DNA from: a virus
Taxonomy: Duplodnaviria; Heunggongvirae; Uroviricota; Caudoviricetes
IMG/VR virus record: IMGVR_UViG_3300024333_000003
Length of the DNA: 64,000 nt
Reading direction: 5' to 3' (one strand)
The notes under the pieces: model-generated
Told to the model about the DNA's origin: nothing
The model's database searches: none
What the model saw: only the letters and a program-made list of their open reading frames with translations
Shown: positions 652 to 62,947 of the stretch, one piece after another
How positions within the stretch are numbered: the first letter of the stretch is position 1
How the letters are laid out: every line of letters begins with the position of its first letter
Program-made: the position numbers and the translations under genes

Positions 652-1630
652 TTTTTAGTGCTTTTCTATATTCATTCAAATATGCAGAATATGCTGCATC
701 CCGGTCTTTCTTCAACTTATCTAGTTTATCATCTGTCATACCTGTTCCTGCTTCGATGCCTATCGCTGCCTCGCGCTTTTCAGTAATTAGTTTAGCTTCG
801 GCTTCCGTTACCTGAGCAACTAAATCATTGTATATCTTTAATAAATTATTCAAAGTTGTTTTTAAAGTCTTCGATGTTGCTATTCCTGGAGTATACTGAT
901 TACGAACATAAGCGTTATAAAAGTTTTCTTCCATTACAGCCCAAGTCATTTGAAACTGTACCAAATACTGATTATTGGTATCTCTAGTTAATTGTAATTG
1001 TACCGGATAACCAATAATTGATGACCGTTCAAAAAACAAGCCTGCTATATTATTCTGTTCCACTAGTTTTGTACCGCGCAACTGCTCATCGTAAAACATT
1101 TGAAATGAGGTAGACCAACGATACTGATCGCGAGTACGCAAAGAAAACATTCTGTCGACATCGGCCAAGCCCAATTCGACCGCCATTAATTCACCGTATA
1201 TGTTGTCATTTGTATAACTTGAGTCTAATGCCTCAATAAGCATACCTTGAATTGTATATACCTTAGTACGCTCGCCGAAGAAAAATAATTTCGATTCTCG
1301 AAATGTCTCAATTATTTGAAATCGCTCCAATTTAGGTTTTGTTATACTTTGCAGAAAGAAATTTTTAGTCATATATTTAATACGACGATCAGTAGCATTA
1401 AATATTGATATAACTGCCGGTTGTTTTATCTCCGATAAATTTATTGTATGAGATTTTTCATTTTGTTCTGTTGAAATCGTTAAAGCATCGTCTGCATCTG
1501 GAGTAACCTGACTTTTTTCGGGTACAGTCATTATACTATTAAGTGAACCACCGGTAGCAGTAACTTTTGAATAAGTATTACTAATTACCGCAGGTATATA
1601 AAATAATGGCATTATTCTAATCCTTTCCAA
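644..1630 (-). CDS. virion structural protein (hypothetical, 328 aa)
   Basis: Long minus-strand ORF co-oriented with and overlapping the adjacent large structural ORFs; no recognisable motif. Confidence 0.5.
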   Translation of the reverse strand: MERIRIMPLFYIPAVISNTYSKVTATGGSLNSIMTVPEKSQVTPDADDALTISTEQNEKSHTINLSEIKQPAVISIFNATDRRIKYMTKNFFLQSITKPKLERFQIIETFRESKLFFFGERTKVYTIQGMLIEALDSSYTNDNIYGELMAVELGLADVDRMFSLRTRDQYRWSTSFQMFYDEQLRGTKLVEQNNIAGLFFERSSIIGYPVQLQLTRDTNNQYLVQFQMTWAVMEENFYNAYVRNQYTPGIATSKTLKTTLNNLLKIYNDLVAQVTEAEAKLITEKREAAIGIEAGTGMTDDKLDKLKKDRDAAYSAYLNEYRKALKNE

Positions 1631-3984: not shown

Positions 3985-3993
3985 ATATCCTCG

Positions 3994-6765
3994 TTACCAA
4001 TGTACTTTAACATTTATATAACCAGTGGCTTGATCAGCAGCTTTTTTCAGCGTAGCTGTGTTTGTAATAATTTCTTTCAATGCCGCTGCCTGCGCAGCGT
4101 TACTTTGTGCTTGCATCGTTGCTTCAGGACTTAGTCCTCCAGTCATACCTATTGCGCCGAACTGTTTCATTTGTTTTGCTATTAGATCCAGTTGGTCATT
4201 TACCTTTTTTTGATCTTTCAGCTGATCGTCTACTTTTGCTTTCTCGGCACTAATTCCTGATTCTTGTAATAGATCACTGGTTTGAGAATTGAAAGTATCG
4301 GCACCAGTACCTCGTCCGATAAGCTCGGCGGCGCCACGAGCGACCACAGCGCCAGCGCGGTTTAATGTGGCTGTCAGCCATTTATTTGCTCGAAATGTCT
4401 TACTAACTTCAACACGCGATGCAATATCTTCACGTTCTAGCCCCCATTCATCTAGCCCCCGCGCTATTCCTCGTAAAAAAGAAACTTGCGGGCCTGCTAA
4501 TATATCACTTACTGTTTGCTCTTCTTGTGCCGCAGTAGTTTTGTTATACAATTGTGTTATTCTAGTTGCTTCCCCCTTAGTCATCCCGGGTTTAGCAAAA
4601 TCTTTTATATTTGACACCAACTTTTCATTTATAAGAAGTTGCATTTTTTCTTGTGTCATTGGCTCGGCAAGTCGTTCTTGCAGCGTCTTCTCCGCCGCCG
4701 TGGTTTTTGAATCAACTTGACGTAATTTATTTAAATTTCGATTTATAAAATATTCTCGTGCAAGAGTTGTTTGTTTGTCATTTGCGTCAGACACACTTTC
4801 AAGTATATTTTTTCGTTCATTTTCAGAAGCATATATTAAGTCGACCACCGCTTTTTCAGATCCAAGAACTTTTTGTAAATCATCGAAACGTTCGTGATCT
4901 ATTCCAGTGAACAGGGCGTTTATAGCAGAAGTGCGTGTACGTGTTATATAATCAGGCTCTCTCAATGTTGCGTTACCAAGTACTTTTTCAGCGTATTGTT
5001 CTAATCCTCGCAAAGCCGTAGGTAATCCTAGAAAGTTTCCTGTAGCAGCCATTGTATTACTAATGACATTTGTAAAACGATCAGACATCTGGGCAAGTGT
5101 CGATGGAGCCATATCAACCGCTGTTTGATAGCCGGTATTACGTAGTTTAGCTATATTAACCGTTGCACCTCCTGTAGCCATTCGATATGATGATTCGGCA
5201 TCTGGTAACGACACCCCTAGTGTTGTCTGCGCAAATCCCATAAAATTTTCCATTGTAGGATTTATATTTAACATCTTCATAACTGATGCTATATCTAATC
5301 CGCGCATAGCCGCAAGGACTGTGGGATTTTCATTACTGATTAATTTACCCATACGACCCTGCATTCCCAATATGCCTTCGATTCCCCCGGCACTAAGATT
5401 TGCAACTGCGGTACCAATCGCTTCTTGTGGACTCATACCAACGGTACCCATTAATCCGCCCGATGTCATACCCGCAGCAAAACGAGTAAAGCCATTCATA
5501 CTATTAGCCCATTCGTATCCCATACGAGTTGTATTTAATGTATATTGTTGTATTCCACCATACTGTTGTATTAGTTCCATCGGAACGGTGCCTGCTTCGA
5601 CAAATGATTTAGTACGTAATAATGCATCCATTCCTCCCGCAAACGCTGACCCTAAATTTATCCCGGTACCACGTACCATCTCCGCAGCTTGTTGTGCAAA
5701 TGACATAAATTCTTTTGGTGTATAACCAGCAGCATATGCCATTGTAGCTGTACCTATTGCTGAATTACCGGTTATAGGTCGTCCATACATTTGCATGGTA
5801 TTCATATACTGTAAAGCGTCTTCTTCAGTAAGACGTAATATCTGCATTACTTTGCGATGATTCTCAATCATATCTTTTGCACGAGTTCGATATTCTTCTG
5901 CTGATCTTACAGTATCGAACCCACCAATAGCGGTATATTCCTGCATTACACGTTGTACATCAGTATTTGTAACACCATATCCAACCAATGCCTCGCTTCT
6001 TGCTACAGTTGATAAATCCTGGCCAATCTGTAAAGCTTGCTGTCTTGTGAATCTTCCAGCAAATGTACGCCAAGAAGTATTATATGCAAAATCACGGATT
6101 GCGCTTGCTTGTTCGTAATCTCGTAATATGGTAGTTCCTGCGACATCATATGCCATATCACCTACCATACCTCCGAGTACAGTTCCAATAACACTTCCAA
6201 AAGGTATTGGAGTTAGGCTTCCTGCTATACCACCAAGCATTGAACCGCCTATTCCAAATGTTAACCTGCCTGATTGATTAGCAAATTCATAGCCTGCGCG
6301 TCGTCGGAACTCTCCTGGCGTAAGTGACATTGATGGGTCATATCCCAAACCAATAACATTGGCGGTTAAGTTTTGAAAAACACCGCGGTTATGAAATGAC
6401 GGTATTGGCGCACCTTGTGCAGATGCAAACATGGGTACATCAACCTGTGATAAATAAGATGTCATTACATCGTTATTAAATTTCTGAAATCCAAGACGCA
6501 TGGATTGCATTGCACGATGTACATCGTTCTGCGCATTCTGTGCCGCGCTTATTGTATTATTTATATCTTGCCCTAGCGATATTTGTGCATTTGCCAGCGC
6601 TTGCTGCATTGGGAAAGCAAAAGCTGCGGGTTGTGTTGAAGGAGTAATTGTATTAAATACTTGCGCACCGAGGGCCTGGTCGATTTGTGCGCGTACCTGT
6701 TGTAGTTGAGAAGCTAAATCACTTGTGTCTATTTTTAGTCTATATTCAAGATCTTGATCTGCCAT
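3994..6765 (-). CDS. tail tape measure protein (923 aa)
   Basis: Very long ORF with Gly/Ala-rich hydrophobic core (GGIAGSLTPIPFGSVIGTVLGGMVGD) and extended coiled-coil-like N and C regions. It follows the frameshifted chaperone gene. Confidence 0.6.
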   Translation of the reverse strand: MADQDLEYRLKIDTSDLASQLQQVRAQIDQALGAQVFNTITPSTQPAAFAFPMQQALANAQISLGQDINNTISAAQNAQNDVHRAMQSMRLGFQKFNNDVMTSYLSQVDVPMFASAQGAPIPSFHNRGVFQNLTANVIGLGYDPSMSLTPGEFRRRAGYEFANQSGRLTFGIGGSMLGGIAGSLTPIPFGSVIGTVLGGMVGDMAYDVAGTTILRDYEQASAIRDFAYNTSWRTFAGRFTRQQALQIGQDLSTVARSEALVGYGVTNTDVQRVMQEYTAIGGFDTVRSAEEYRTRAKDMIENHRKVMQILRLTEEDALQYMNTMQMYGRPITGNSAIGTATMAYAAGYTPKEFMSFAQQAAEMVRGTGINLGSAFAGGMDALLRTKSFVEAGTVPMELIQQYGGIQQYTLNTTRMGYEWANSMNGFTRFAAGMTSGGLMGTVGMSPQEAIGTAVANLSAGGIEGILGMQGRMGKLISNENPTVLAAMRGLDIASVMKMLNINPTMENFMGFAQTTLGVSLPDAESSYRMATGGATVNIAKLRNTGYQTAVDMAPSTLAQMSDRFTNVISNTMAATGNFLGLPTALRGLEQYAEKVLGNATLREPDYITRTRTSAINALFTGIDHERFDDLQKVLGSEKAVVDLIYASENERKNILESVSDANDKQTTLAREYFINRNLNKLRQVDSKTTAAEKTLQERLAEPMTQEKMQLLINEKLVSNIKDFAKPGMTKGEATRITQLYNKTTAAQEEQTVSDILAGPQVSFLRGIARGLDEWGLEREDIASRVEVSKTFRANKWLTATLNRAGAVVARGAAELIGRGTGADTFNSQTSDLLQESGISAEKAKVDDQLKDQKKVNDQLDLIAKQMKQFGAIGMTGGLSPEATMQAQSNAAQAAALKEIITNTATLKKAADQATGYINVKVHW

Positions 6766-8221: not shown

Positions 8222-9227
8222 ATTGACAAGGTCCACATATTACGTATAATAACTTATGAAAAATAAAATTAAGATATTATATAAAAGTGGGTTGTCGGCT
8301 TATCAAATAATGCAAAAACTACACATTGCTTCAAAAGAATTAGTATACAATGTTATACATGAAGAAAAATTAACTAGGGACTACGAAGAATGCAGACACC
8401 CTGGTTTGAATAGTCGTTATTTTAAAAATATAGATACAGAAGAAAAAGCGTATATACTTGGATTAATATTCGCCGACGGTTGTGTTAGAAAAAATCGCCC
8501 AGGCATGACCTTAGCACTACATCCGAATGATCTGTACATGTTGCGACGGATTAAAGATATTTTAGGAACCAAGGCAAAGATTCAAATATCAAAACAACCT
8601 TTAGCGGTGTATTATATAAATAATAAACAAATGAGATTAGACGTCATAGCTAAAGGGTGCTTGCCACAAAAATCTCTACGAGGTGGAAAACCCAAAAATA
8701 TTCCTATAAAATACACACATCATTTTATTAGGGGTATATTTGATGGTGATGGTTCGATATATATAAGAAAAGTTCCTCATCTTAGATACTGTTTTGACAT
8801 ATCTGGCAATATCGATGTTGTTTCTTGGTGCCATAAAAGATTAAAACTTTATACTAAGATAACAAAACACCGCTCAATATTTAGATTAGAGACGACTAAT
8901 TTAATTGAAGTTGTTAGAATATTTAATTATTTATATAAAGACAGTACAATTTTTCTAAAGAGAAAAAAAGCATTATTTGAAAAAGCTTGTGCCGCACTTG
9001 ATCGTAAGATCAAAGGTGTAAATCAAGGAAAAACGGTAAAAACCCGTGATGGGCAATACCGTGCTAAACGCAAGGATAGCAAACAGGCCCTGCGCAGTGT
9101 AGAGCATAGGAATTGAATAAATATAATATTCCCAAGAGTCCTTGACATCCTTATAGGATGAAAATATATGCCGAGCTACAAAGTAATTTGTAGAAATTGA
9201 GATAACAACCTCAATGATAACAAAATG
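8222..9227 (+). mobile_element. putative self-splicing (group I-type) intron carrying a LAGLIDADG homing endonuclease
   Basis: Joining gt(8220-8221)+a(9228) restores codon GTA, giving ...ICDEV|HIVPAKTYAEVISKIPAKYKYGLSATPER (motifs II and III). 5' exon ends in U, intron ends in G (9227). An in-frame TGA sits immediately before exon 2. Confidence 0.55.
8256..9116 (+). CDS. LAGLIDADG homing endonuclease (intron-encoded)
   Basis: Two LAGLIDADG motifs: ILGLIFADGCV and IRGIFDGDGSI. Confidence 0.8.
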   Translation: MKNKIKILYKSGLSAYQIMQKLHIASKELVYNVIHEEKLTRDYEECRHPGLNSRYFKNIDTEEKAYILGLIFADGCVRKNRPGMTLALHPNDLYMLRRIKDILGTKAKIQISKQPLAVYYINNKQMRLDVIAKGCLPQKSLRGGKPKNIPIKYTHHFIRGIFDGDGSIYIRKVPHLRYCFDISGNIDVVSWCHKRLKLYTKITKHRSIFRLETTNLIEVVRIFNYLYKDSTIFLKRKKALFEKACAALDRKIKGVNQGKTVKTRDGQYRAKRKDSKQALRSVEHRN

Positions 9228-9924
9228 ACACATCGTACCAGCAAAAACATACGCTGAAGTTATTTCAAAGATACCAGCAAAATATAAATATGGATTATCA
9301 GCCACACCAGAACGAGCTGATGGTCTTACTAAAGTAATATTCTGGTTAACCGGCCCATTGGTACATCAGGTTCCAGATGCCGCTGTTGCAGATAGAATTG
9401 TAAAACCTGTATATGAGTATATAAAAACTTCATATACGTATCCATTATTTGATACGTCAGAATATGGTATCATGATAACGGATATGGGTACTAATGACAT
9501 AAGAAATAAATTAATAGTTGACACCGTAAATAAATATAAAACACAACAATGTGTTCTATTGTGTCATAGACAAGAACATGCTCAGAGACTGGGTGCGTTA
9601 CTACCGGACTCCGTAGTTTTATTATCCAGTGTAAAGAAAAAAGATCGCGCCGCTATTATGCAGCAACTTGAAAGCGGTAAAAAGCGTATTGTTGTTACTA
9701 CCTGGCAATTGTTTCATAAAGGCATCGATCTGAAGGAGCTTGAGATCTTATTTATATGCGCACCAACACGAAGTAAAGTGTGGTTAAAACAAAGCGCCGG
9801 CAGACTAATGCGAGTTTCAAATAAGATAAAAAAGAATCCAGTCATTATTGATTTTGCGGATGTAAATATAGATTTACTAAAATTCCAATGGTATGCAAGA
9901 AAGAGAGTATTTACACAACTATGA
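9228..9924 (+). CDS. SF2 helicase, exon 2 (motif III LSATPER plus helicase C-terminal domain)
   Basis: Frame open from 9229 with no stops. Contains GLSATPER and C-terminal helicase motifs (VVTTWQLFHKGIDL, QSAGRLMR). Confidence 0.6.
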
Positions 9925-51194: not shown

Positions 51195-51641
51195 CTAGGA
51201 TAGTTGGAAAAATTCTTTTTCAAATTGTTTTTTTCGTCGTATTTGTTCTTTGGTGTATTTACCGTTGCGAACAGTCAATTTAGCATAATATCTTATAATG
51301 AATTTCATCCGACGTGATTTCTTTGGATGTCTAATATAAGGCAATAATTTATGCATTACGTCTATTGCATCAGCACGAGTTATTTTCCAACTATATGCAA
51401 TCATGTAATTTCGCTTTTGACGGCCATGATTACAAATAATTCCGCCAAAATATCGTTGTAACGGTAATAAAATTTCTAAACACGTATTAGCTACAGATAA
51501 CACAGGTGATCTGTACTCTCCGGAGTGATTATGTGTTAATGTAACTGAACCCTCACCATCGACGATGCCGGCGGTCCAACTATAAATGCTTTCTATCTTC
51601 GTAGTCTTTTTGGACATGGTAATCTTTTCTCCTATATCCAA
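51195..51641 (-). CDS. LAGLIDADG homing endonuclease (free-standing, single motif)
   Basis: AGIVDGEGSV motif. Confidence 0.7.
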   Translation of the reverse strand: MDIGEKITMSKKTTKIESIYSWTAGIVDGEGSVTLTHNHSGEYRSPVLSVANTCLEILLPLQRYFGGIICNHGRQKRNYMIAYSWKITRADAIDVMHKLLPYIRHPKKSRRMKFIIRYYAKLTVRNGKYTKEQIRRKKQFEKEFFQLS

Positions 51642-52565: not shown

Positions 52566-52865
52566 ATGAAACAGTTGAACAGACTGTATGTGTTAGTGCG
52601 TGAAGACTTAAATCTTACATACGCTGGAGTTCAAGCTGGACATGCAGTAGCAAAATTTATGTTAGAATTCCCAGGTATATGGTGTAATACTACACTTATA
52701 TATTTGCGGATAAAGAATGAGGATAAGCTTATAGAATGGCGTGACAAATTAATTGTCAGAGGTATTCCGTATGCTTTATTTAGAGAACCTGATTTAATGA
52801 ATCAGGCAACTGCCGTCGCTGTATTGAGCGATGGTAATATATTTAAAAATGTAAAATTATTGTGA
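52566..52865 (+). CDS. Pth2-family peptidyl-tRNA hydrolase
   Basis: YVLVREDLNLTYAGVQAGHAVAKF matches the PTH2 core LVVRTDLxMxxGKxAAQCxHA; ATG 52566 with GGAG upstream. Confidence 0.55.
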   Translation: MKQLNRLYVLVREDLNLTYAGVQAGHAVAKFMLEFPGIWCNTTLIYLRIKNEDKLIEWRDKLIVRGIPYALFREPDLMNQATAVAVLSDGNIFKNVKLL

Positions 52866-52949
52866 CAGTAAAAAATGAAACTATGCAGTTAAAACCACCA
52901 AATGGGCCGGGGATCCATAGCCTCGTTAACCTCCTTTGGGCTGGCGTGT

Positions 52950-53700
52950 TGCCCATTAACCTTATTGGTTAGCTATGAACAATCATAGTACTGTTCGCCA
53001 GAACTGCATTCCAGAATGATTTAGGTTAATTGCGAAAGCCCCTGGAACAGGGGAGTCCTACGCATACTTACCCGTCGTAGGTGAGCCTGTCTAATTATGG
53101 GTTAGACCCAGGGTCGATCCAAAAGGTAAGCTCGATCGAAATTAACTATTGTCTGCGTGGCCGAGAACGAAATAAGCACTAGTCTCTAAAACTAGTTACA
53201 CGGGGTCGTTCCCCGTCGCAGACACTTATTCCTCTGTGGTGAAATGAAAAGAGATGTATATTTGTTACGTATTAATATACATTACTAAGTCACTAGATTG
53301 AATTAGTAGGTGACAGCATCGAGTTACCAGTATAGACTGTTCTTTATGGTCAAGTTCAGAGCAAGTGTATTGGAAGAATAACTAGGATGAAGCGATTAAA
53401 CCAATTGTCATGCGACGAACGTTTAGTTGCGTAGCGGCTGAATATTCAATTGAAAATTAGAATGGGATCTTTACTACTCCCTGTCGAACGCTTACAAACG
53501 GAACTGACTGTCAGTAGACTAAAAGTAATGCTGCAGGTTTGAGTCCTGCCAGAGGGATAAATTTTTATCCGGACGGCGTATTATTCTCTCGACGCCTAAT
53601 AAATATGGGGAGATTATCAGTCCTGTCATAAACAATTCCGCTCAATGAGCACCGGAGCCATTTGATAGGACTTTTGCATTATATATGGCTCCGCCACGAT
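52950..53700 (+). ncRNA. group I intron-like ribozyme core in an ORF-free region
   Basis: P4-P6-like UUAAUUGCGAAAGCCCCUGGAACAGGGGAGUCCUACGCAUAC (~53024-53065). R-like CAGUAGACUAAAAG (~53515-53528) and S-like AUUAUCAGUCC (~53609-53619) can form P7. Confidence 0.45.
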
Positions 53701-53728
53701 TACAAAAAACTTTATATCAGGAGATATA

Positions 53729-54397
53729 ATGAATGTACTAAAGAAGGCGCTATCCCCGTTCTGGAATTTTGCTCCAGATTCTGGGCAAGAAACCCCTTCT
53801 GCTGATGAGCAGCTGGCCACGCCCGAAAAAATGGCAACGCCCGCACAAAAAAGTATTAAGCCTGGACGTCAGACAGTTGATGAAGAAATTCTGCAACAAA
53901 TAGTTGCAGATGTTGATAAAGCAACGCCATCAGTCCTGTCGGATTTTTATGGTCTTGTCGAGTCATTATCGGAAGCTATTGCCGATGAGTCTGCTAGATT
54001 TAAATCTGCTTTTATTGCTTTGCAAAAACAAGGAAAAGCAAGTGTAGAAATTTTATTAAATGCTATTACCGCAAAATTCAGTGCTGTAGATGCGGCATCG
54101 GAGCAATTTGATGCTGAATTGTCCGAATCGCAAAAAGGTATTGATACAAAAAGACATCAAGCGGCAAAGATCGATGATACCATTGCAGAATTAAATGATC
54201 AAATCGAGAAGCTAAAAGTACAAGCTAATGATTTATTGGTTGGTGCCGCACAAGAGGAGCAACAATTGTCTGCGCAAAAAGATGTATTTACTGCTACGCT
54301 CGATTCGGTACGTACTGCAATTAGAGAGCAAGAAACAAAAATAAAAACATATCTAGCAACACAAACAACTTCAACGCAAAAGAGAAAGGCACGTTAA
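53729..54397 (+). CDS. coiled-coil protein (222 aa)
   Basis: Strong RBS AGGAG 8 nt upstream; heptad-rich sequence. Confidence 0.5.
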   Translation: MNVLKKALSPFWNFAPDSGQETPSADEQLATPEKMATPAQKSIKPGRQTVDEEILQQIVADVDKATPSVLSDFYGLVESLSEAIADESARFKSAFIALQKQGKASVEILLNAITAKFSAVDAASEQFDAELSESQKGIDTKRHQAAKIDDTIAELNDQIEKLKVQANDLLVGAAQEEQQLSAQKDVFTATLDSVRTAIREQETKIKTYLATQTTSTQKRKAR

Positions 54398-55440
54398 TGA
54401 CACCAGGATTATCTGATGGTCTCGCGAAGTCATTCTGGCAACGCAAAGAGGGCACATTTGGTATGATTGTCGCAGTAGCATTAGCGGCGGCAGCTTTATA
54501 CGGACTAAATCTAGCATTACCATTTATTATTGGTTTGTTAGAAAATACATTAACGGCAGCGTTTCTTTTTATGACTGTAGTTATTGTAGGTACGATCTTA
54601 ACAAGTAAGCGATTTTGGACCTTATTTTTTGGTTCATTTAAACTTATTATGCGTTGGGTCACTGGGATTTTCATTACTATTGATCCGATCGGTATATTAA
54701 AAAATTATGTAGATAAATTAGCTGATAAACTTGTCTTAATTGAAAAACAAATAAAGAATCTCCGAGGTCAGATGGGGCAATTAAAAGTCACCATTGACAC
54801 CAACGAGAGAGATCGTCAGCGGTCTATTTCGATGGCAAAGGCGGCAAAAACTTCTGGTAAAAAAGCGGCATTAGTATTAAATGCACGTAGTGCTGGAAGG
54901 TTGAAAGAATCAAACATCACGTTACAGCAGCTCTACACAAAGCTGGAGAGTTTGATGCGTATGTTGAACAAGATGCGAGAAGTCTCTGAATTTATGTATG
55001 AAGACATCAAACAAAATGTAGATACTCTCGAGCGACAAACCGCGGCAGTAACCACTGGTCACAAAGCCATGACTGCGGCAATGTCCTTTATTCGCGATGC
55101 ATCTGATGATAAAAAGCTATATGATCAAACAGTTGAAAATCTACTCAATGATTATGGGCAGAAACTTGGAGAAATCGATCAATTCATGGAAGTTGCAACT
55201 CCATTTATTGAGGGTGTTGATCTAGCTAATATGGCCTTTGAAGCAGACACATTAAAGGAACTTGAATTATGGGAAAGCAAAGTAGATAGTTTGTTGCTAG
55301 GCGACACAAAAGCATTACTTGTCGGTAATGAAGAACTCGCTCCTTTGTTAAACGAATTACCCTCGGCGCAACAAGTGCCAATAGAATCAAAATCACAATC
55401 AACCACAACATCCAAATATTTACGAAAGAATCGATCATGA
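54397..55440 (+). CDS. membrane protein with coiled-coil C-terminal half (347 aa)
   Basis: 2-3 N-terminal TM segments then a long coiled coil; translationally coupled to the flanking genes. Confidence 0.5.
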   Translation: MTPGLSDGLAKSFWQRKEGTFGMIVAVALAAAALYGLNLALPFIIGLLENTLTAAFLFMTVVIVGTILTSKRFWTLFFGSFKLIMRWVTGIFITIDPIGILKNYVDKLADKLVLIEKQIKNLRGQMGQLKVTIDTNERDRQRSISMAKAAKTSGKKAALVLNARSAGRLKESNITLQQLYTKLESLMRMLNKMREVSEFMYEDIKQNVDTLERQTAAVTTGHKAMTAAMSFIRDASDDKKLYDQTVENLLNDYGQKLGEIDQFMEVATPFIEGVDLANMAFEADTLKELELWESKVDSLLLGDTKALLVGNEELAPLLNELPSAQQVPIESKSQSTTTSKYLRKNRS

Positions 55441-57227
55441 ACGAAGGAACCGGAATACGCCCAGCCGGAAGGCTGCTTATTATTATGGCAATAGTTGGAA
55501 CATTATTCTATTTGTTATTTTTTGGACCTCTTAACCAATATATTCCCGGCAAAGAACCCGCCAAGGCAGTTGTAGCAAAAAGGGTAAATCTGGGAAATAT
55601 TGCAAATACAAAAAGTATTGCAGCGGAACTTCCGCTTCCGTCGGCAGACCCAGCACCTGCTACAAACACAACTTTCAAGTATGAAATAATGGCCTGGAAT
55701 TCACAGTTTTCTCTGATGCTTGCCAATGGTGGTATTGTTACCACATCGGGGTCGCTTATGGAAAAGTACGGGGTTAATATTACACTAGAGCGACAAGATG
55801 ATTGTGAAAAAATGAAGGCAGACCTAGTGGCATTTGCAACTGAGCTCAAAGACGGAAATCCATATCCATCAGAAAAACCTGCATTTGTTGCTGTAATGGG
55901 AGATGGTGCTGCACAATTTATAGCCGCACTCAATCCAGTACTAGAAAAACTCGGCACTGAATATCGTGCTAAAGTCATAGGTTCAGCCGGTTATTCTTAT
56001 GGTGAAGATAAATTGATGGGGCCACCGGAGTGGAAAAAGAATCCTGGGTCTATGCGCGGTTGTGTCATATCCGGTTATCTACGAGATGGCGACTGGAATA
56101 TTGCAATGAAATATACTGGTGACAACGGCATTCCAAATAATCCTGATGAAACCACTTACGATCCTAATGCTGTAAATTGGGTTGCTGCTAATGACTTTTT
56201 AGATGCGCCAGCTAAATTAATTGCGGGATATGAAGAAGATCGTCCAGTAGTTATTAATGGCAAGAAAACTGGAAAAACACAACGTATCAAAGTTCAAGGT
56301 ACAGTTACTTGGACTCCTGGTGATGTGAATGTCGTCGAACAATGCGACCAAGATATCATAAATATCGTAAGCACACGTGAATATGCGGGGCAAATGCCAA
56401 ATGCTATTATTGGGATCGATGTGTGGTGCAAAGACAATCGTAAAATGGTTGAAGGAATGCTTCGAGCTATTGGCGAAGCCGGAGATCAAATAAAAAGATA
56501 CGATGCCGCAAAACAACGCGCAGCAGAAATCTCGGCCAGTGTATATAAGGAGAAGGATGCTGAATACTGGTTACGATATCATGATGGTACAGAAGAACTA
56601 AATAAACACGGTTCAGTAGTGCAATTAGGCGGTTCAAAACCAAACAATATTGCAGATATGGTACTTTTGTTTGGTCCTTCGGGATTATTTAAATCTACCT
56701 ACGTCGCATTTGGTAATGTTGTAATTCAGCAATATCCAAAACTTGTACCAAGCGTACCAGCGCCAGAAATCGCTATCGATGGTTCGTATGTATTAGCTGT
56801 TGCAAAAGAAACCAACACAAATACCTCTACGGCAGATCGTTTTACGTTCAAAAAGGGAAGTACCTTAAAAGAAGTTGTCGGCAAACGTAAATATAGTATT
56901 CAATTCGAAATCGGTAGATCAGCTATACGTGCAGGCCAAGAGAACACTCTCGAAGCATTAAAAGATGAGCTTGCGGTCAGCTTGTCATTGAAAGCTGTAA
57001 TTCATGGACATACTGATAATACTGGTACTCCTGAAGGAAATATGCGTTTATCGGCAGATCGCGCACAAGCTGTACAGTATTGGCTTGAAGGGAAATACCA
57101 AGATTTATTCCCGGAAGGTCGATTAAATATTGTTGCACACGGTCAAACCCGGCCAGTGGCTGACAATGATACAGAGACAGGACGTGCCAAAAACAGACGT
57201 GTCGAAATAGTAACTGGCACAGAGTAA
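55437..57227 (+). CDS. membrane-anchored substrate-binding-like protein with C-terminal OmpA/MotB peptidoglycan-binding domain
   Basis: N-terminal TM, a central region resembling NitT/TauT-family periplasmic binding proteins, and C-terminal NTGTPEGNMRLSADRAQAV...RRVEIV OmpA-like motif. Confidence 0.5.
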   Translation: MNEGTGIRPAGRLLIIMAIVGTLFYLLFFGPLNQYIPGKEPAKAVVAKRVNLGNIANTKSIAAELPLPSADPAPATNTTFKYEIMAWNSQFSLMLANGGIVTTSGSLMEKYGVNITLERQDDCEKMKADLVAFATELKDGNPYPSEKPAFVAVMGDGAAQFIAALNPVLEKLGTEYRAKVIGSAGYSYGEDKLMGPPEWKKNPGSMRGCVISGYLRDGDWNIAMKYTGDNGIPNNPDETTYDPNAVNWVAANDFLDAPAKLIAGYEEDRPVVINGKKTGKTQRIKVQGTVTWTPGDVNVVEQCDQDIINIVSTREYAGQMPNAIIGIDVWCKDNRKMVEGMLRAIGEAGDQIKRYDAAKQRAAEISASVYKEKDAEYWLRYHDGTEELNKHGSVVQLGGSKPNNIADMVLLFGPSGLFKSTYVAFGNVVIQQYPKLVPSVPAPEIAIDGSYVLAVAKETNTNTSTADRFTFKKGSTLKEVVGKRKYSIQFEIGRSAIRAGQENTLEALKDELAVSLSLKAVIHGHTDNTGTPEGNMRLSADRAQAVQYWLEGKYQDLFPEGRLNIVAHGQTRPVADNDTETGRAKNRRVEIVTGTE

Positions 57228-57296
57228 TTCACAAGTAATCAAAAATTTCGGGCAACCGTCAGTAATCCTGGCGGTTGCTCTAATTCAAGGAATAAA

Positions 57297-58082
57297 ATGA
57301 ACCTTACATTGGAAATGTTTTCACCAAACAAGGTTATGTCCAAATCAATTATGACTTCTATGGCAGCAATTCAACTTGCCATAGCTGTTGCAGTATGGTG
57401 GATTTGGCCCTCATACGTGGTTCCTAAACCATTAGAAGTTTTAGCTAGCTTTAGCAAGATATGGTACAATGGTTTCGGGCAAGAACTTATCACAAGTTTT
57501 ATTTTATGTTTGCAAGCGATAGGTATTACATTGATCGTTTCATTAGGATTGACATATGCAACAGTAATGCCTTTTTTCAGACCTATAGCAATGTTTGTGA
57601 CAAAAGGTCGTTTTTTAGGACTAGTTGGTTTTACATTTTTATTTACGTTAATCGCTAGTGGTGGGCACCAACTTAAATTGATGTTGGAAGTATTTGGTAT
57701 GTCCGTGTTTTTCGTCACTTCAATGATGGCGGTTATAGAAGCAATTCCAAAAAGTGAGTTCGACTATGCACGTACATTACAAATGAACGAATGGCGCGCA
57801 GTATTTGAAATCATTGTTTTGGGGCGCGCTAGCGATGCAATCGAGGTATTACAACAAAACTTTGCTATGGGATGGATGATGCTTACTATGGTTGAAGGAG
57901 TTGCTAGATCCGAGGGCGGTGTAGGTAAATTTTTACTTGATAGTAACAAACATTTTGAATTAGCAGATATTTTTGCTATTCAAATAACTATCTTTGTATT
58001 AGGTTTATTTATTGATTATGCTATCGGTGCTCTAAATAAAACTATTTGTCCATACGCATTTATTACGAGGGAAAGAACATGA
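57297..58082 (+). CDS. ABC transporter permease (multi-TM)
   Basis: 261 aa with ~6 hydrophobic segments; 4-nt overlap with the downstream ATPase gene. Confidence 0.5.
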   Translation: MNLTLEMFSPNKVMSKSIMTSMAAIQLAIAVAVWWIWPSYVVPKPLEVLASFSKIWYNGFGQELITSFILCLQAIGITLIVSLGLTYATVMPFFRPIAMFVTKGRFLGLVGFTFLFTLIASGGHQLKLMLEVFGMSVFFVTSMMAVIEAIPKSEFDYARTLQMNEWRAVFEIIVLGRASDAIEVLQQNFAMGWMMLTMVEGVARSEGGVGKFLLDSNKHFELADIFAIQITIFVLGLFIDYAIGALNKTICPYAFITRERT

Positions 58083-58873
58083 AACGGATAACAAAAGAAA
58101 CTTTGCTTCGTATAGAAAACGTTTCTTTAACATACGGCAATCGACAGATTCTCAAAAATGTAAACGGCGAAATTAAAAATAACGTCGGACATGGGCAAGT
58201 TGTAGGATTATTGGGCCCATCAGGAATAGGCAAAACTCAACTATTTCGTATACTATCTGGTCTGCAGAAGCCCACGACAGGAACAGTTCGTATCACTGAG
58301 AAAAATATAGAAGTAACCCCCGGCAGTGTTGGCGTCGTAGCTCAGAACTATCCTCTCTTCGCACATCGCACAGTTATTTCCAATTTACTGTTGGCTGGGC
58401 GAAATAGAAAGGATACTCCTGAAAAAGCACGTATATTTCTGGAGCGGTTTGATTTAAAAGCACAGACACATTTATACCCATCACAGTTATCTGGAGGACA
58501 GCGGCAACGAATAGCCATCATACAACAATTACTATGTAGCGAACATTTTTTATTGATGGATGAACCCTTTTCTGGACTTGATCCTTTAATGATAGATGAA
58601 ATCTGTACATTAATAACCGAAGTCGCAAACCTACATGAATTAAATACCATTATAGTAATCACACACGATCATCGGGCAGCTATTAAAGTCTCCGATATTC
58701 TGTGGTTAATGGGGCGCGATCGTGATGAAAACAACAAAGCAATACCAGGAGCTTATATTAAACATACTTATGATCTTGTAGAAAATGGGTTGGCCTGGCA
58801 AACAGATTTATCATCTTCGCCAGTATTCACGTCATTTGCGAAGATGATAAAAGAACAATTTAAAACACTTTAA
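58079..58873 (+). CDS. ABC transporter ATP-binding protein
   Basis: Walker A GPSGIGKT, signature LSGGQRQR, Walker B LLMDEP. Confidence 0.8.
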   Translation: MKRITKETLLRIENVSLTYGNRQILKNVNGEIKNNVGHGQVVGLLGPSGIGKTQLFRILSGLQKPTTGTVRITEKNIEVTPGSVGVVAQNYPLFAHRTVISNLLLAGRNRKDTPEKARIFLERFDLKAQTHLYPSQLSGGQRQRIAIIQQLLCSEHFLLMDEPFSGLDPLMIDEICTLITEVANLHELNTIIVITHDHRAAIKVSDILWLMGRDRDENNKAIPGAYIKHTYDLVENGLAWQTDLSSSPVFTSFAKMIKEQFKTL

Positions 58874-58909
58874 TAAATAGCGAACAATAATCATTATATA
58901 AGGAACAAT

Positions 58910-59548
58910 ATGAAACGCATATTTATTTTTTTATTTTTATTGTTATTTATATCTATCGGACAAGCGCAATTTAATTCTGGTGCTTGTTTCAAATCACAGT
59001 ATGTAATAAAAGGTATACAGCTGTGTGCAACACCTACAATTGGAGGCTATCTTGAATATTCTACCAAAAACTTTATCGCCAATATTACCGCAGATGCAAG
59101 TATATCTGAACGCTTCTCCGAAAATACTGTTACATTCGCTTGGAGTTTGGTCAATGACGGGTCAATTTGGCTTTGCGACTATTACTATCCGTATCCCGCC
59201 AATAAATATGGGAACTTTGCCAATAAAAATCTGGGCGCACATTTTATTGAAATCGGAGGAAGGTACAATTATGCGGGGTTTGAATTTATGGCGACAGGTA
59301 ATGTTTACAACGACACTACACACAGCAAATACTTACAAATCAACCGAATTATCCGATTACCTGCCGAATCCGGCCAATTATCCTTCTTTATAGGTGCCGC
59401 CATAGGAAAAGCCTTTTTCTATAATACTGAAAAAGGATTGCATGTTATAAATGTTGGAATGAGCCATCAATATAAAAAACTTGTTGTTACATATTATGTT
59501 AATCCAACTGCCGAAGAAAGCAGTGTTATTGTTACTTACAATCTATAG
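58910..59548 (+). CDS. secreted/outer-membrane beta-barrel-like protein
   Basis: Signal peptide MKRIFIFLFLLLFISIGQA, alternating aromatic/hydrophilic strands, C-terminal ...VTYNL. Confidence 0.4.
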   Translation: MKRIFIFLFLLLFISIGQAQFNSGACFKSQYVIKGIQLCATPTIGGYLEYSTKNFIANITADASISERFSENTVTFAWSLVNDGSIWLCDYYYPYPANKYGNFANKNLGAHFIEIGGRYNYAGFEFMATGNVYNDTTHSKYLQINRIIRLPAESGQLSFFIGAAIGKAFFYNTEKGLHVINVGMSHQYKKLVVTYYVNPTAEESSVIVTYNL

Positions 59549-59562
59549 TTTATATATTTATT

Positions 59563-59644
59563 AGAGGTATGTGGGTAACTGGGCATCCCAGCAGAATCAT
59601 AATCTGCCGCGAAAGCCTTGAGGGTTCAAGTCCCTCTACCTCTA
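59563..59644 (+). tRNA. class II (long variable arm) tRNA with CAU anticodon, A73
   Basis: Acceptor AGAGGUA/UACCUCU, anticodon arm GCAGA-AUCAUAA-UCUGC, 12-nt variable arm CGCGAAAGCCUU, T-arm GAGGG-UUCAAGU-CCCUC. Confidence 0.55.
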
Positions 59645-59660
59645 CGAAAGGAGAAATCAT

Positions 59661-60290
59661 ATGTCAATAATGGACAAAATTTTAGTATTAAAGTTAAATA
59701 GATCTTGGATGCCCGTAGGATTTTCTACGATCGCTAAGGCTGTTGTAGATTTATGTGCTGACATAAACTGTTATGCACTTGACATTCAATATGAACTTGT
59801 TGAAGGTCAACCAGATCTCGATAAGCCTATAAGTATGAATCCTGTTACATGGGATAATTGGATACAATTACCCGTACGACCATGGGACATACCACTGCAT
59901 TCACCAAGTATTACTGTGCGGGCACCAACGGTTCTTATAGCAAGACATTTTGACGCCATGCCTATTATTGCATATGGTACTTATCCTACCACACGTCAGA
60001 TCCAAGAACGAGATGAATTTACTGATCAATACACCGGAAGGAAACTCGCTCCCGCTGAGATGTCGATAGATCATGTTGTGCCAGTATCGAAAGGTGGTAA
60101 ACATACTTGGGACAATATGGTATTAACACATAAAGATATTAACTTTAAAAAAGGTAATAGATTAAATAAAGAAGTAGGTTTAAAGTTAATAAAACAACCT
60201 GCCAAGCCCAGGCCTGTTGCTATAAGTTCTTTGATTCGTGAAGTACGACATGCGGATTGGAAGCATTTTTTGTTGCACAAAATAAAGTAA
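59661..60290 (+). CDS. HNH homing endonuclease
   Basis: IDHVVPVSKGGKHTWDNMVLTHKDINFKKGN (HNH). Confidence 0.7.
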   Translation: MSIMDKILVLKLNRSWMPVGFSTIAKAVVDLCADINCYALDIQYELVEGQPDLDKPISMNPVTWDNWIQLPVRPWDIPLHSPSITVRAPTVLIARHFDAMPIIAYGTYPTTRQIQERDEFTDQYTGRKLAPAEMSIDHVVPVSKGGKHTWDNMVLTHKDINFKKGNRLNKEVGLKLIKQPAKPRPVAISSLIREVRHADWKHFLLHKIK

Positions 60291-61003: not shown

Positions 61004-62947
61004 ATGAGTAAAATATTAATAAAAAACCTACAGATTTATAACGACATTTATGGCCTTAATATAACAGAAATAGAGCGTGATTTATTTGACGCTTTATTCA
61101 CAATGTTTAAAGGCTCAAATCTTACATATATTTATAACTCCGGACCAAATAATAAGGATTTGGTATTACGTTTTAACGGGTATGATGATGCCTTATATCT
61201 TGAACTACCGGACGCAACTGCTAAAAAATTTGGATATAAATTATTTAAATTACGCAATGCGCGATATTATTTAAAATTCGTACCAAAGCAGGAAGATATA
61301 AAATATATTAATATTATCGGGGACATTGGAAATAAAGAACAACAAGCAAAAGAGTTTTCGACCCTAGACGATCTAAAACAACACATTCTAGATAATGACT
61401 TACCGTCATTTCTTAGTAACTTTGCTTTGACACAAATAAAAATAGAAACTCTATATTGGCTTTGTAATAAACTAGATCAATATAAACCATCATTATTTAA
61501 TGATCCTAATAAATATGAAAAATTGCCTGACTACATTCATTATATTGTAGACGTTATACAATTAATGGATGATACCAGAATAGCTTTATATGCAGAAGTA
61601 AATCATGGCTGTAGAACAACTATGATTGGTTACTCCATAAAATTCTATATTACAAAACCGGATAATGCTTCATATAATTGGACTGACCCTGATAGGTATT
61701 GTAGTAATGAGAATGAGAAGACTGGCCAACCTAAGGTATTCTATATTGGCCCCGATCCTGAATTTCCCGAAGAAGAAGCATTAAATAAATATATACGTGG
61801 CCATGAACATATTGTAATTGAAAATTCCACTCTAACTATGATAGCAAAGCGTGATGAACGAAAGAAAATAGAAGATGCGGTAGTAGAAAAGGCACAAGCC
61901 GGAATACAAAAGAAACTCACTGATAAGATAGCTGAATTAGAAACTGGTGGAGAGTTCACGTTTAATGACGTAACATTTAAAGCGCATTCTATTGAATATG
62001 AATCTCATATAATAAAAAGTAATAATGTGAAAGTTAAATATCTCCTTGGTAACTTTATACGCAATCTTCGGGATGATTCGTTCAATTTTGAGAATATATT
62101 TACTGCATTCTGCAAAACAGTAATTACGGAAGCACAAAATTCCGGCAGAGTGAAAATGCAGATTGGGAACATTAATGTTACTTTGGAAGTTCGTAAAAAG
62201 GTAAATTCAGCCGGAACCACAATGGTCACCAACTATATAAATGACTACCGCATAAATAAAGACGAACTTGTCGACGTATTACCGAGAGCGCTATGTTACA
62301 ATAAAGATGAGGACTACGATAACTACCTGGAAAGCGTTAGTAAGTGTTCACTAAGATATCATCGCGCGATAGCAGCCGGTATAATATTACAAGCACTCGA
62401 CGAAATAACTGGGGAAACCGTTGACTTCAAAATTGGATTGGAAAGAGATAAAAATAGAAATTATATCTCATTTGGAGACAAATCAAAATATGTGGTAAAA
62501 GACTCCAACAAGCTGCTCAATTTGATCGGTGTAACCTCAATGAGTCGAATAATTGATATATTAGTAGATCCGGATATAGTAGGAATTACTGGATCCGACA
62601 TCAAATATATTATCGAGACTGGGCGTAAGGTATGGGCTGAGGAACGCACTAAAGAACAAGAAATGCTTTCACAGACTATTGCTTTATTTAACTGTCAAAA
62701 AATGGAAGATGCTTTACTAGACAACGGGCGGGTCGTCAGTGGTTACACTGTTAAAGGTAAATTAAGAGAATATATTGTAGAGACTTCTACAATAAGAGTT
62801 TTTGAATATCCAAGTGGGAAATATTTATGCATGGTTGACAAAGGACAAAATGAGCATGCAAATATCGCACGATTAGTTAATAGAATGTTTGCGTTAGCAA
62901 ATGATTCTAGATTGGCTAATGAAATTACAACTTTACAAACTAAATGA
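61004..62947 (+). CDS. hypothetical protein (647 aa), first gene of an operon with the GG-ended small protein and E1-like enzyme
   Basis: Stop overlaps the start of the next ORF (ATGA). Confidence 0.45.
   Translation: MSKILIKNLQIYNDIYGLNITEIERDLFDALFTMFKGSNLTYIYNSGPNNKDLVLRFNGYDDALYLELPDATAKKFGYKLFKLRNARYYLKFVPKQEDIKYINIIGDIGNKEQQAKEFSTLDDLKQHILDNDLPSFLSNFALTQIKIETLYWLCNKLDQYKPSLFNDPNKYEKLPDYIHYIVDVIQLMDDTRIALYAEVNHGCRTTMIGYSIKFYITKPDNASYNWTDPDRYCSNENEKTGQPKVFYIGPDPEFPEEEALNKYIRGHEHIVIENSTLTMIAKRDERKKIEDAVVEKAQAGIQKKLTDKIAELETGGEFTFNDVTFKAHSIEYESHIIKSNNVKVKYLLGNFIRNLRDDSFNFENIFTAFCKTVITEAQNSGRVKMQIGNINVTLEVRKKVNSAGTTMVTNYINDYRINKDELVDVLPRALCYNKDEDYDNYLESVSKCSLRYHRAIAAGIILQALDEITGETVDFKIGLERDKNRNYISFGDKSKYVVKDSNKLLNLIGVTSMSRIIDILVDPDIVGITGSDIKYIIETGRKVWAEERTKEQEMLSQTIALFNCQKMEDALLDNGRVVSGYTVKGKLREYIVETSTIRVFEYPSGKYLCMVDKGQNEHANIARLVNRMFALANDSRLANEITTLQTK

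Follow-up and report, generated by a model that had tools for sequence, protein, structure and literature searches.

Organization of the cassette

We analyzed a 64,000-nt stretch of the IMG/VR record IMGVR_UViG_3300024333_000003 (Caudoviricetes), hereafter called the window, and coordinates given below refer to this whole stretch unless a relative is named. The window carries a cassette of six genes, g1 to g6 (53729–59548), in which a predicted membrane-anchored relative of PspA, Vipp1 and ESCRT-III proteins is combined with a predicted ABC importer. The six co-directional open reading frames (ORFs) had been pointed out in an earlier reading of the sequence of the window (the original prediction), and all of them were verified on the + strand. 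The first gene, g1 (53729–54397, 222 aa), encodes a putative cytoplasmic coiled-coil partner protein, and g2 (54397–55440, 347 aa) encodes a protein with a transmembrane (TM) anchor that is a putative member of the PspA/Vipp1/ESCRT-III superfamily. These are followed by g3 (55437–57227, 596 aa), a predicted solute-binding protein that is anchored by a TM helix at its N-terminus and ends in an OmpA-like domain, g4 (57297–58082, 261 aa), a predicted ABC importer permease of the BPD_transp_1 type, and g5 (58079–58873, 264 aa), an ABC ATPase. The last gene, g6 (58910–59548, 212 aa), encodes a signal-peptide protein that may form a small outer-membrane beta-barrel. Two further features lie on the same strand, namely a structured leader about 30 nt 5' of g1 (53566–53697), delimited with a covariance model, and a GC-rich 13-bp hairpin between g3 and g4 (57250–57280), identified by folding in comparison with shuffled sequences.

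The start of g5 was placed at the ATG at 58079, which overlaps the stop codon of g4. The mechanical ORF opens at a TTG at 58046, and the ATG was also picked by gene callers on identical contigs. Adjacent genes overlap at three junctions, with TAATG at g1/g2 and ATGA at both g2/g3 and g4/g5, and gaps of 69 nt and 36 nt are found between g3 and g4 and ahead of g6, respectively. The earlier suggestion that the first five genes are translationally coupled is therefore upheld at g1/g2, g2/g3 and g4/g5, but not at g3/g4, where the 69-nt gap contains the hairpin. The arrangement of the genes is not due to chance, since the same order is seen in many phage and bacterial loci.

g2 and its coiled-coil partner g1

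The g2 protein has two TM helices, at residues 23–41 and 51–69, and a further hydrophobic helix (residues 83–101) immediately ahead of a helical hairpin. An AlphaFold2 (AF2) model generated with 40 homologues showed a mean predicted local distance difference test (pLDDT) score of 68, with values of 80–95 in the hairpin. Helices 97–153 and 156–231 form this hairpin in the model and are followed by helices 238–273 and 283–301, which corresponds to the layout of ESCRT-III. A Foldseek comparison of the model with the Protein Data Bank (PDB) returned Vipp1, PspA or CHMP structures of the ESCRT-III superfamily at all ranks from 1 to 19. The best match was Vipp1 7o3w (E 6.9e-4, probability 1.00), and other top matches were Vipp1 6zvr, PspA 7abk/9hzm, CHMP1B/IST1, CHMP2A-CHMP3, Snf7, Asgard ESCRT-IIIB and CdvB.

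We then considered the family of g2 homologues at the level of sequence. The PF04012 PspA_IM30 profile was matched colinearly but below its threshold by 17 of the 43 family members at E<1, and the best of these matches (1.9e-5) aligned residues ~100–285 to profile positions 23–198. No match to Snf7 was found, and some of the family are labeled 'phage shock protein A' in their source annotation. g2 contains two motifs, a conserved N-terminal KxFWxRxEG and IDPIGI, that are not known from PspA. Taken together, the predicted fold and the weak sequence similarity, which stays below curated thresholds, suggest that g2 belongs to the PspA/Vipp1/ESCRT-III superfamily as a divergent protein with a membrane anchor. 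The original prediction described g2 as a TM and coiled-coil protein, which agrees with the two TM helices and the long helices seen here, while its likeness to PspA, Vipp1 and ESCRT-III had been missed. A match of g2 to Rz-like spanins (phrog_739, E 0.0038, no passing stretch) was rejected as coiled-coil noise.

The predicted α1–α2/3 hairpin of g2, followed by α4 and α5, is similar to that of PspA, Vipp1 and LiaH (7abk, 6zvr, 7o3w). Unlike PspA and Vipp1, which bind peripherally to membranes through the amphipathic helix α0, g2 would be anchored permanently by its two TM helices, which, with the hydrophobic helix at 83–101, may replace or supplement α0. Application of the positive-inside rule places both ends of the TM pair in the cytoplasm, and thus the ESCRT-III-like domain is predicted to lie on the inner leaflet. 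Accessory partners like PspBC, PspF or LiaI are missing.

The AF2 model of g1 (pLDDT 79.6) contained helices at residues 46–64, 68–80, 87–100 and 106–221, the last of which spans 116 residues. In order along the protein, a short N-terminal motif is followed by a linker predicted to be disordered, then by a small domain of helices and finally by the single long helix. The N-terminal motif, which is MGFKDLF-like, is found in most members of a family of ~85 proteins of ~230 aa that have no Pfam domain. No PspA signal was detected in g1.

A membrane- and wall-anchored ABC importer

The OmpA domain of g3 (PF00691, residues 490–587) was detected with an E-value of 4.8e-17 and a score of 62.5 bits, against a cut-off of 27.2, and aligned with the OmpA, Pal and YiaD domains in the PDB with E-values down to 4e-29. 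Residues D527 and R542, which we take to be the diaminopimelate/peptidoglycan-binding Asp and Arg of OmpA-like domains, were invariant in 21 family sequences. A single TM helix is located at the N-terminus (residues 13–31). Full-length homologues of g3 number more than 3000, and two subtypes could be distinguished. A long subtype of ~600 aa is found in the window, other phages, Acidobacteriota and Proteobacteria, and a short subtype of ~510–530 aa is found in Bacteroidota and Fibrobacteria. Proteins of the short subtype match NMT1/THI5-like binding-protein models, those of loci L012 and L013 matching NMT1 at 5.5e-15. A direct match to Pfam NMT1 was not seen for the center of the g3 protein of the window. 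However, hhalign aligned the long with the short subtype over the full length, with a probability of 100% and an E-value of 2.5e-41 across 497 columns, indicating that the center of g3 is a divergent type II periplasmic binding domain of the NMT1-like class.

Hydropathy analysis of g4 revealed approximately six hydrophobic TM segments. Its match to BPD_transp_1 (E 0.0034, 17.6 bits) was under the cut-off of 26.4, and homologues in relatives do carry a BPD_transp_1 domain that passes Pfam. A SaoP-type permease model of NCBIfam was matched at 2.6e-5, and an EAA-like loop, DYARTLQMNEWRAVFEIIVLG, could be aligned to the canonical loop found in the short subtype (TLGAxxWQT...IP) and is kept across homologues. 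The ATPase domain of g5 was identified with confidence (ABC_tran, E 5.5e-27, 95.5 bits against a cut-off of 25). All its motifs are intact and conserved, including GPSGIGKT (Walker A), the Q-loop, LSGGQRQR, LLMDEPFSGLD (Walker B) and THD (H-loop), and its top NCBIfam matches were importer ATPases (PhnT2, CysA, SaoA and TauB-like).

These domain assignments indicate that g3–g5 encode a predicted type I ABC importer of the NitT/TauT kind, whose binding protein is membrane-anchored and carries an OmpA-like peptidoglycan-binding domain. The proposal of a complete ABC transporter with a peptidoglycan-tethered binding protein and coiled-coil membrane partners is thereby borne out in its domain calls. 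The NitT/TauT importers SsuABC, TauABC and ThiXYZ share with g3–g5 the ATPase and permease families and the fold class of the binding protein. They differ in that g3 is fused to an OmpA-like anchor, with the long subtype being highly divergent, and in that g3–g5 are tied to a gene pair with an ESCRT-III-like member.

Distribution of the cassette in bacteria and phages

Matches to the g2 family were found in at least 575 species-level bacterial genomes, mostly of Saprospiraceae, Lewinellaceae, Emticicia and Cytophagales, with others in Tenacibaculum, Fibrobacteria, Burkholderiales, Leptospiraceae and further groups. We determined the linkage of the genes in the 80 best bacterial g2 loci with a hidden Markov model (HMM) and synteny script, counting only loci with enough flanking sequence. 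Among these bacterial loci, 55 of 72 had g1 directly 5' of g2, as did every phage locus that we inspected, and g1 is almost always accompanied by g2. A full-length g3 came next in 32 of 55 bacterial loci and g3, g4 and g5 together in 22 of 55, and g6 was present in none. A five-gene layout lacking an AAA+ gene and identical to that of the phage is common in Bacteroidota and Fibrobacteria. In a Thermoanaerobaculia variant (L002), genes for PspA and an AAA+ protein lie ahead of g3–g5.

Among phages, the full five-gene order was seen in LR756500.1 (L001, 462 kb), IMG/VR UViG_3300015615_000196 (L007, 362 kb), L008, L010 and the Lak megaphages. The cultured Ralstonia jumbo phage RsoM2USA carries only g1–g2, as ORF55 and ORF54. 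RsoM2USA ORF54 is homologous to g2 (tblastn E 2e-22, HMM 5.8e-63), and the g1 homologue ORF55 lies directly 5' of it. At least five unrelated huge-phage lineages therefore carry g1–g2, namely the lineage of the window, Lak, LR756500.1, the 362-kb IMG/VR phage and RsoM2USA. Crude neighbor-joining trees showed sequences of phages interleaved with those of bacteria. Several lineages of huge phages have thus harbored the cassette for a long time, and the earlier description as unusual phage cargo is not supported if taken to mean a one-off. Since RsoM2USA and many bacteria keep g1–g2 without the transporter, these two genes form the core, with the transporter as a frequent adjunct.

Some of these loci show individual features. 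In Lak-B5 (L095, 10235–11598), three paralogous ORFs of 165, 146 and 152 aa, each beginning with MKY..DLI.KKVLII, lie between g3 and g4. In the phage-like L008, g1 is directly preceded by an ORF of 130 aa and by a gene for a 299-aa Band_7/SPFH protein (988–1887; Pfam E 2.7e-14), and Band-7 proteins have been described as another genomic partner of PspA (PMC11237479). The closest relatives of phage g2 and short-type g3–g5 outside the lineage of the window are on a 31.7-kb contig of a metagenome-assembled genome (MAG) labeled Geobacter (L014) and a 95.9-kb contig of a MAG labeled Nanoarchaeota (L024, locus GC 0.39). No tRNAs were found in the L014 and L024 stretches. Because the cassette is linked to OmpA and peptidoglycan, its presence in a bin labeled 'Nanoarchaeota' suggests that L024 is a mis-binned bacterial or phage contig.

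Exchange of the transporter within the phage lineage

The lineage of the window comprises six syntenic members (the window, L009, L096, L098, L099 and L100) on contigs of 31–215 kb, whose flanking genes are 50–74% identical; g1, g2 and, in most of them, g6 occupy the same position. Three members (the window, L009 and L099) have the long subtype at the position of g3–g5, and the other three (L096, L098 and L100) have the short subtype that matches NMT1. Between the subtypes, g3, g4 and g5 are only about 20–31% identical, against 64–74% for the flanking genes. Comparison of the window with L096 showed that g2 is 71% identical, whereas g3 aligns in the OmpA domain only (31%), g4 is 20% identical and g5 31%. 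The g3–g5 genes of L096 are nearest to short-type cassettes, and both versions of the transporter have the GC content of the phage. An analogous transporter has thus been swapped in place beside a conserved g1–g2 pair, suggesting that the combination is under selection and that its parts are functionally coupled. Of the evidence presented here, this exchange argues best for selection on the combination.

The g6 gene is present in the window, L009, L096, L098 and L100, and is absent from L099, from other phages and from the bacterial loci; it is a lineage-specific addition outside the conserved module. The protein has a signal peptide, as had been predicted. In the window, g6 did not match any Pfam family. 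Among distant relatives (n = 70, ~220 aa), PF09694 (Gcw_chp), a family of TorF-type putative porins, was matched by 8 of 27, the best at 2e-14. g6 is plausibly a small outer-membrane beta-barrel distantly related to Gcw_chp/TorF-like proteins.

Comparison with known systems

A related class of bacterial operons has been described. In a comparative-genomics study, Ravi et al. (2024, mSystems; PMC11237479) described operons with PspA, a TM-anchored divergent Snf7, PBPB+OmpA, a permease and an ABC ATPase, an example being OGG56892.1, and listed the operon strings in their Table S3. The combination of a membrane-anchored ESCRT-III-like protein with a PBP-OmpA protein, a permease and an ABC ATPase is also that of the cassette in the window, and those operons, like the cassette, are known only from comparative genomics. 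The operons of Ravi et al. contain a soluble PspA and tandem AAA+ ATPases, one inactive and one active, and the cassette has neither. When the AAA+ and PspA proteins of the L002 operon were used as phmmer queries, no match was found among the ORFs of the window. Pairwise BLASTP of g1, g2 and g6 against the L002 neighbors gave nothing meaningful, and hhalign of the g1 family with a 234-aa protein of that operon, a single-sequence target, gave no signal. In the cassette, g1 takes the place of the soluble PspA and AAA+ proteins, and g1–g2 come first in the order. It also differs in being carried by a phage, with g6 and the structured leader added in this lineage. The cassette is thus a phage copy of a widespread type of bacterial envelope operon that had already been noted.

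Genes resembling pspA are also on record for other phages. ORF54 of RsoM2USA is listed as 'phage shock protein A'-like in the table of the genome paper (PMC8504454), and this phage shares homologues of g1–g2 with the window but lacks the transporter. The Acinetobacter phage vB_AbaM_ME3 has a 'PspA/IM30 family protein', and a pspA-like gene lies beside terD in the Jug phages. The ME3 and Jug proteins are of the soluble PspA type and occur in other gene contexts, and a relation to g2 was recognized at the level of fold only. In the literature consulted, we did not find that a five-gene cassette in phages, the g1 family, the exchange of subtypes or the leader had been described before.

A possible role at the host inner membrane

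We consider it reasonably probable (approximately 0.6) that the phage module stabilizes, repairs or remodels the host inner membrane together with the transporter. g2 would be inserted into the inner membrane of the host, its ESCRT-III-like domain would face the cytoplasm and polymerize on the inner leaflet, and g1 would be a co-polymer or a regulator of g2. The g2 polymer, possibly together with g1, could then stabilize, repair or remodel the membrane during a long infection cycle. The g3 protein would have its N-terminus inside, while the binding domain and the OmpA domain would extend through the periplasm and so connect the inner membrane with peptidoglycan. In concert with g1–g2, g3–g5 might import a small solute or report the state of the envelope, and g6 may provide passage across the outer membrane in this lineage. 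Envelope remodeling, one of the themes raised in the original prediction, is the most likely one. Huge phages have long infection cycles. A latent period of 270 min has been reported for RsoM2USA (PMC8504454), and a cycle of this length provides a rationale for investing in membrane maintenance.

Several observations weigh against such a role. The model of g2 is of moderate quality (pLDDT 68), its TM-scores to Vipp1 are low (0.37–0.6), and long helical hairpins are able to match one another non-specifically. The g2 protein of the window had no Pfam PspA (PF04012) or Snf7 (PF03357) match at E<0.1, and the best PF04012 score in the family was 24.8 bits, against a gathering cut-off of 33.9. No signal was obtained when the g2 family was aligned by hhalign with one bona fide PspA, a single-sequence target, or with the 330-aa protein of the Thermoanaerobaculia operon (L002); these negatives are weak because single-sequence targets are insensitive. 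g1 showed no significant fold or sequence relative in a fold search and in PDB profile searches, and its coiled-coil matches were generic only. There is no AAA+ (Vps4-like) ATPase in the cassette or the window, so that turnover of a g2 polymer would need a host factor or none. Finally, many bacterial loci have g1–g2 without the transporter, i.e., the coupling is facultative.

An alternative explanation would be plain auxiliary nutrient uptake, with g3–g5 as the importer, g6 as an outer-membrane pore, and g1–g2 as mere neighbors or assembly helpers. The solute would be one such as a sulfonate, nitrate, bicarbonate or a thiamine-pyrimidine-like compound, and its uptake would boost host metabolism. 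The hallmarks of an importer are indeed intact, as seen in the ATPase motifs, the EAA-like loop and the NMT1-like binding protein, and the putative porin g6 follows the ATPase in this lineage. The window is also rich in auxiliary metabolic genes, which include those for ribonucleotide reductase (RNR), a NAMPT-like enzyme, a ligase and a CCA-adding enzyme. However, the transporter is tied to g1–g2 across phyla and in phages, and it was replaced in place by another subtype while g1–g2 stayed. RsoM2USA and many bacteria, in turn, have g1–g2 without any transporter. Moreover, fixing a binding protein at the membrane and to peptidoglycan is atypical for scavenging, and an Rfam scan revealed no riboswitch or known nutrient-responsive element upstream. 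We regard uptake alone as a live but less likely alternative.

Somewhat less likely again is an active phage machine for membrane remodeling or repair, in which the ABC transporter would replace a Vps4-like AAA+ ATPase as the input of energy or signal. Such a machine could mend lesions caused by host suicide effectors or by the envelope traffic of the phage itself, or it could form or keep up membrane structures inside the cell. Were this true, drive by an ABC transporter would represent a previously unknown way to power an ESCRT-III-type polymer.

The module might instead serve in counter-defense or superinfection exclusion, with a PspA-like polymer acting against membrane-permeabilizing abortive-infection effectors, or with a change of the envelope that blocks injection by other phages. 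This would be a special case of membrane maintenance with a specific selective agent, and we view it with slightly more doubt than a transporter-driven machine. PspA-family proteins counter membrane leakage, which fits the proposal, as does the recurrence of g1–g2 in huge phages of different clades. In addition, host PspA has been linked to the regulation of CBASS in B. subtilis (bioRxiv 10.1101/2023.09.29.560134). On the other hand, hundreds of bacterial species have this cassette in their chromosomes, and an anti-defense role would make no sense there. A known defense system was rejected, as PADLOC gave only generic matches, of the OmpA domain to ZorB models and of the ABC ATPase to AAA-type models.

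A proton-driven envelope machine of the stator kind, which the original prediction had also brought up, or of the Zorya or Tol-Pal kind is highly improbable. The OmpA-like domain of g3 does match MotB, ZorB and Pal models, and the TM helices and long helical domain of g2 are superficially ZorA-like, but no homologue of MotA, TolQ, ExbB or ZorA was found among the six proteins with Pfam, NCBIfam or PADLOC. The TM helix of g3, LLIIMAIVGTLFYLLFFGP, lacks the conserved Asp of MotB, TolR and ExbD, the helical domain of g2 resembles ESCRT-III-superfamily structures and not stators, and the energy source in the cassette is an ABC ATPase.

PspA, Vipp1 and ESCRT-III are universal membrane-repair and membrane-remodeling polymers, and eukaryotic viruses hijack ESCRT. 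To our knowledge, the role of phage-encoded relatives of PspA and ESCRT-III has not been the subject of any study. The data presented here indicate that huge phages recurrently carry one particular branch of the superfamily, which is TM-anchored and has a constant coiled-coil partner, and that in both bacteria and phages this ESCRT-III-like branch has repeatedly been joined to an ABC importer tethered to the cell wall. The finding of two transporter subtypes at a single locus in sister phages amounts to a natural 'swap experiment' that argues for functional coupling, and RsoM2USA, with ORF54/55, is a carrier that is in culture and open to genetic work. Together, the recurrence in huge phages, the swap and this cultured carrier make the function of a widespread bacterial operon directly testable.

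Genomic context of the cassette

The possibility that the cassette is host DNA was assessed from its composition and surroundings. GC content at third codon positions (GC3) was 0.27–0.33 in the cassette genes as compared to 0.287 ± 0.042 in the other 62 ORFs of the window, and the codon-usage distances of the cassette were within the range of the window. The bacterial homologues have a GC content of 0.51–0.65, and in each phage relative the cassette follows the GC content of its own phage. An identical protein was found on 13 contigs of up to 215 kb, from several samples. The agreement in GC3 and codon usage indicates that the cassette is neither a chimera nor a recent capture, and the host-like signature or chimeric contig that had been named as a reason to doubt the locus was not seen.

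The window has 37 tRNA genes on the + strand (23489–60996), interleaved with small ORFs. Auxiliary genes in the window encode RNR, the NAMPT-like enzyme, DNA ligase, CCA-adding and poly(A)-polymerase-type enzymes, and homing endonucleases. No virion structural genes were recognized in the window when large flanking ORFs were compared with PHROGs and Pfam, and megablast of the cassette against INPHARED phages gave no match. The assignment of the window to a phage rests on the tRNA array, the auxiliary genes, the synteny with relatives and the presence of homologous cassettes in recognized huge phages and IMG/VR. An assembly artefact, with host DNA misjoined to a phage contig, is scarcely credible: although the nearest named g3 homologues are bacterial (Acidobacteriota, ~50% identity) and the window lacks a recognized virion structural gene, the composition equals that of the rest of the window, the cassette sits between phage-type tRNA arrays, the identical protein recurs across contigs and samples, six syntenic relatives keep the cassette between the same flanking genes, and Lak phages and LR756500.1 also carry it.

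Three large ORFs of 790, 923 and 647 aa (1612–6765 on the − strand for the first two, and 61004–62947 on the + strand) had no Pfam or PHROG matches. The 923-aa ORF, upstream of the cassette, gave no match in a tblastn search of INPHARED phages. The 647-aa ORF is kept at 50–64% identity in sister phages, directly 3' of the cassette and an HNH gene. This HNH gene (59661–60290, + strand) comes right after g6 in the window. Genes of the homing-endonuclease type are dispersed in the tRNA and auxiliary region, with a LAGLIDADG_3 match at 8256–9116 (+ strand), and an ORF at 51195–51641 (− strand) appeared LAGLIDADG-like by eye only.

RNA elements and regulation

A covariance model of the leader was built from three relatives and searched in 40 sources. 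The leader (130 nt) was found only in the six members of the lineage, always just 5' of g1, and no Rfam family matched it. Its 3' hairpin (53653–53662 paired with 53684–53693) was 96.7% paired, with compensatory changes in 4 of 10 pairs, in six related sequences only and in an alignment fitted to the model; statistics of this level were reached by only 2–4 of 500 shuffles. The leader may act on the cassette as an operator or as a cis-regulatory RNA.

The hairpin between g3 and g4 has a predicted folding energy (dG) of −22.8 kcal/mol (z −4.07), and none of 200 shuffled sequences folded as well. A U-tract after the hairpin is absent. Strong GC-rich hairpins are also present at the g3/g4 junction in L007 (~9627–9657), L008 (~5472–5510) and L001 (9699–10053). 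The hairpins of the different phages are mutually dissimilar in sequence, and that of L007 is followed by a U-rich run. In ABC importer operons, binding proteins are made in excess. By analogy, the hairpin probably sets a higher yield of g1–g3 than of g4–g5. Scans for sigma-70 promoters and intrinsic terminators gave fewer sites than shuffled sequences, or no more, and no promoter motif common to the intergenic regions emerged from a search with 9-mers.

An Rfam scan of 52600–59800 detected two tRNAs only and no riboswitch. A suppressor tRNA with a CTA anticodon (amber), labeled tRNA-Pyl by ARAGORN, lies at 53151–53225, about 500 nt 5' of g1, and the same suppressor tRNA is present 5' of g1 in L096 (9081–9155). 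The g6 gene ends in TAG, and readthrough would add 10 codons, extending it to 59578. TAG is the stop codon of 5 of the 68 ORFs, and reading it as sense gave no increase in the coding coverage of the window, so that any recoding would concern genes outside the window.

Neither ARAGORN nor Rfam detected an intact tmRNA at 53226–53565 of the window. A tmRNA is located shortly 5' of the cassette in both L009 (5689–6049) and L096 (7203–7563), with the tag peptide ...FEDALA(L/M)V.APAVVLA. The window has a T-arm-like motif near 53530–53550, which may be the remnant of a tmRNA.

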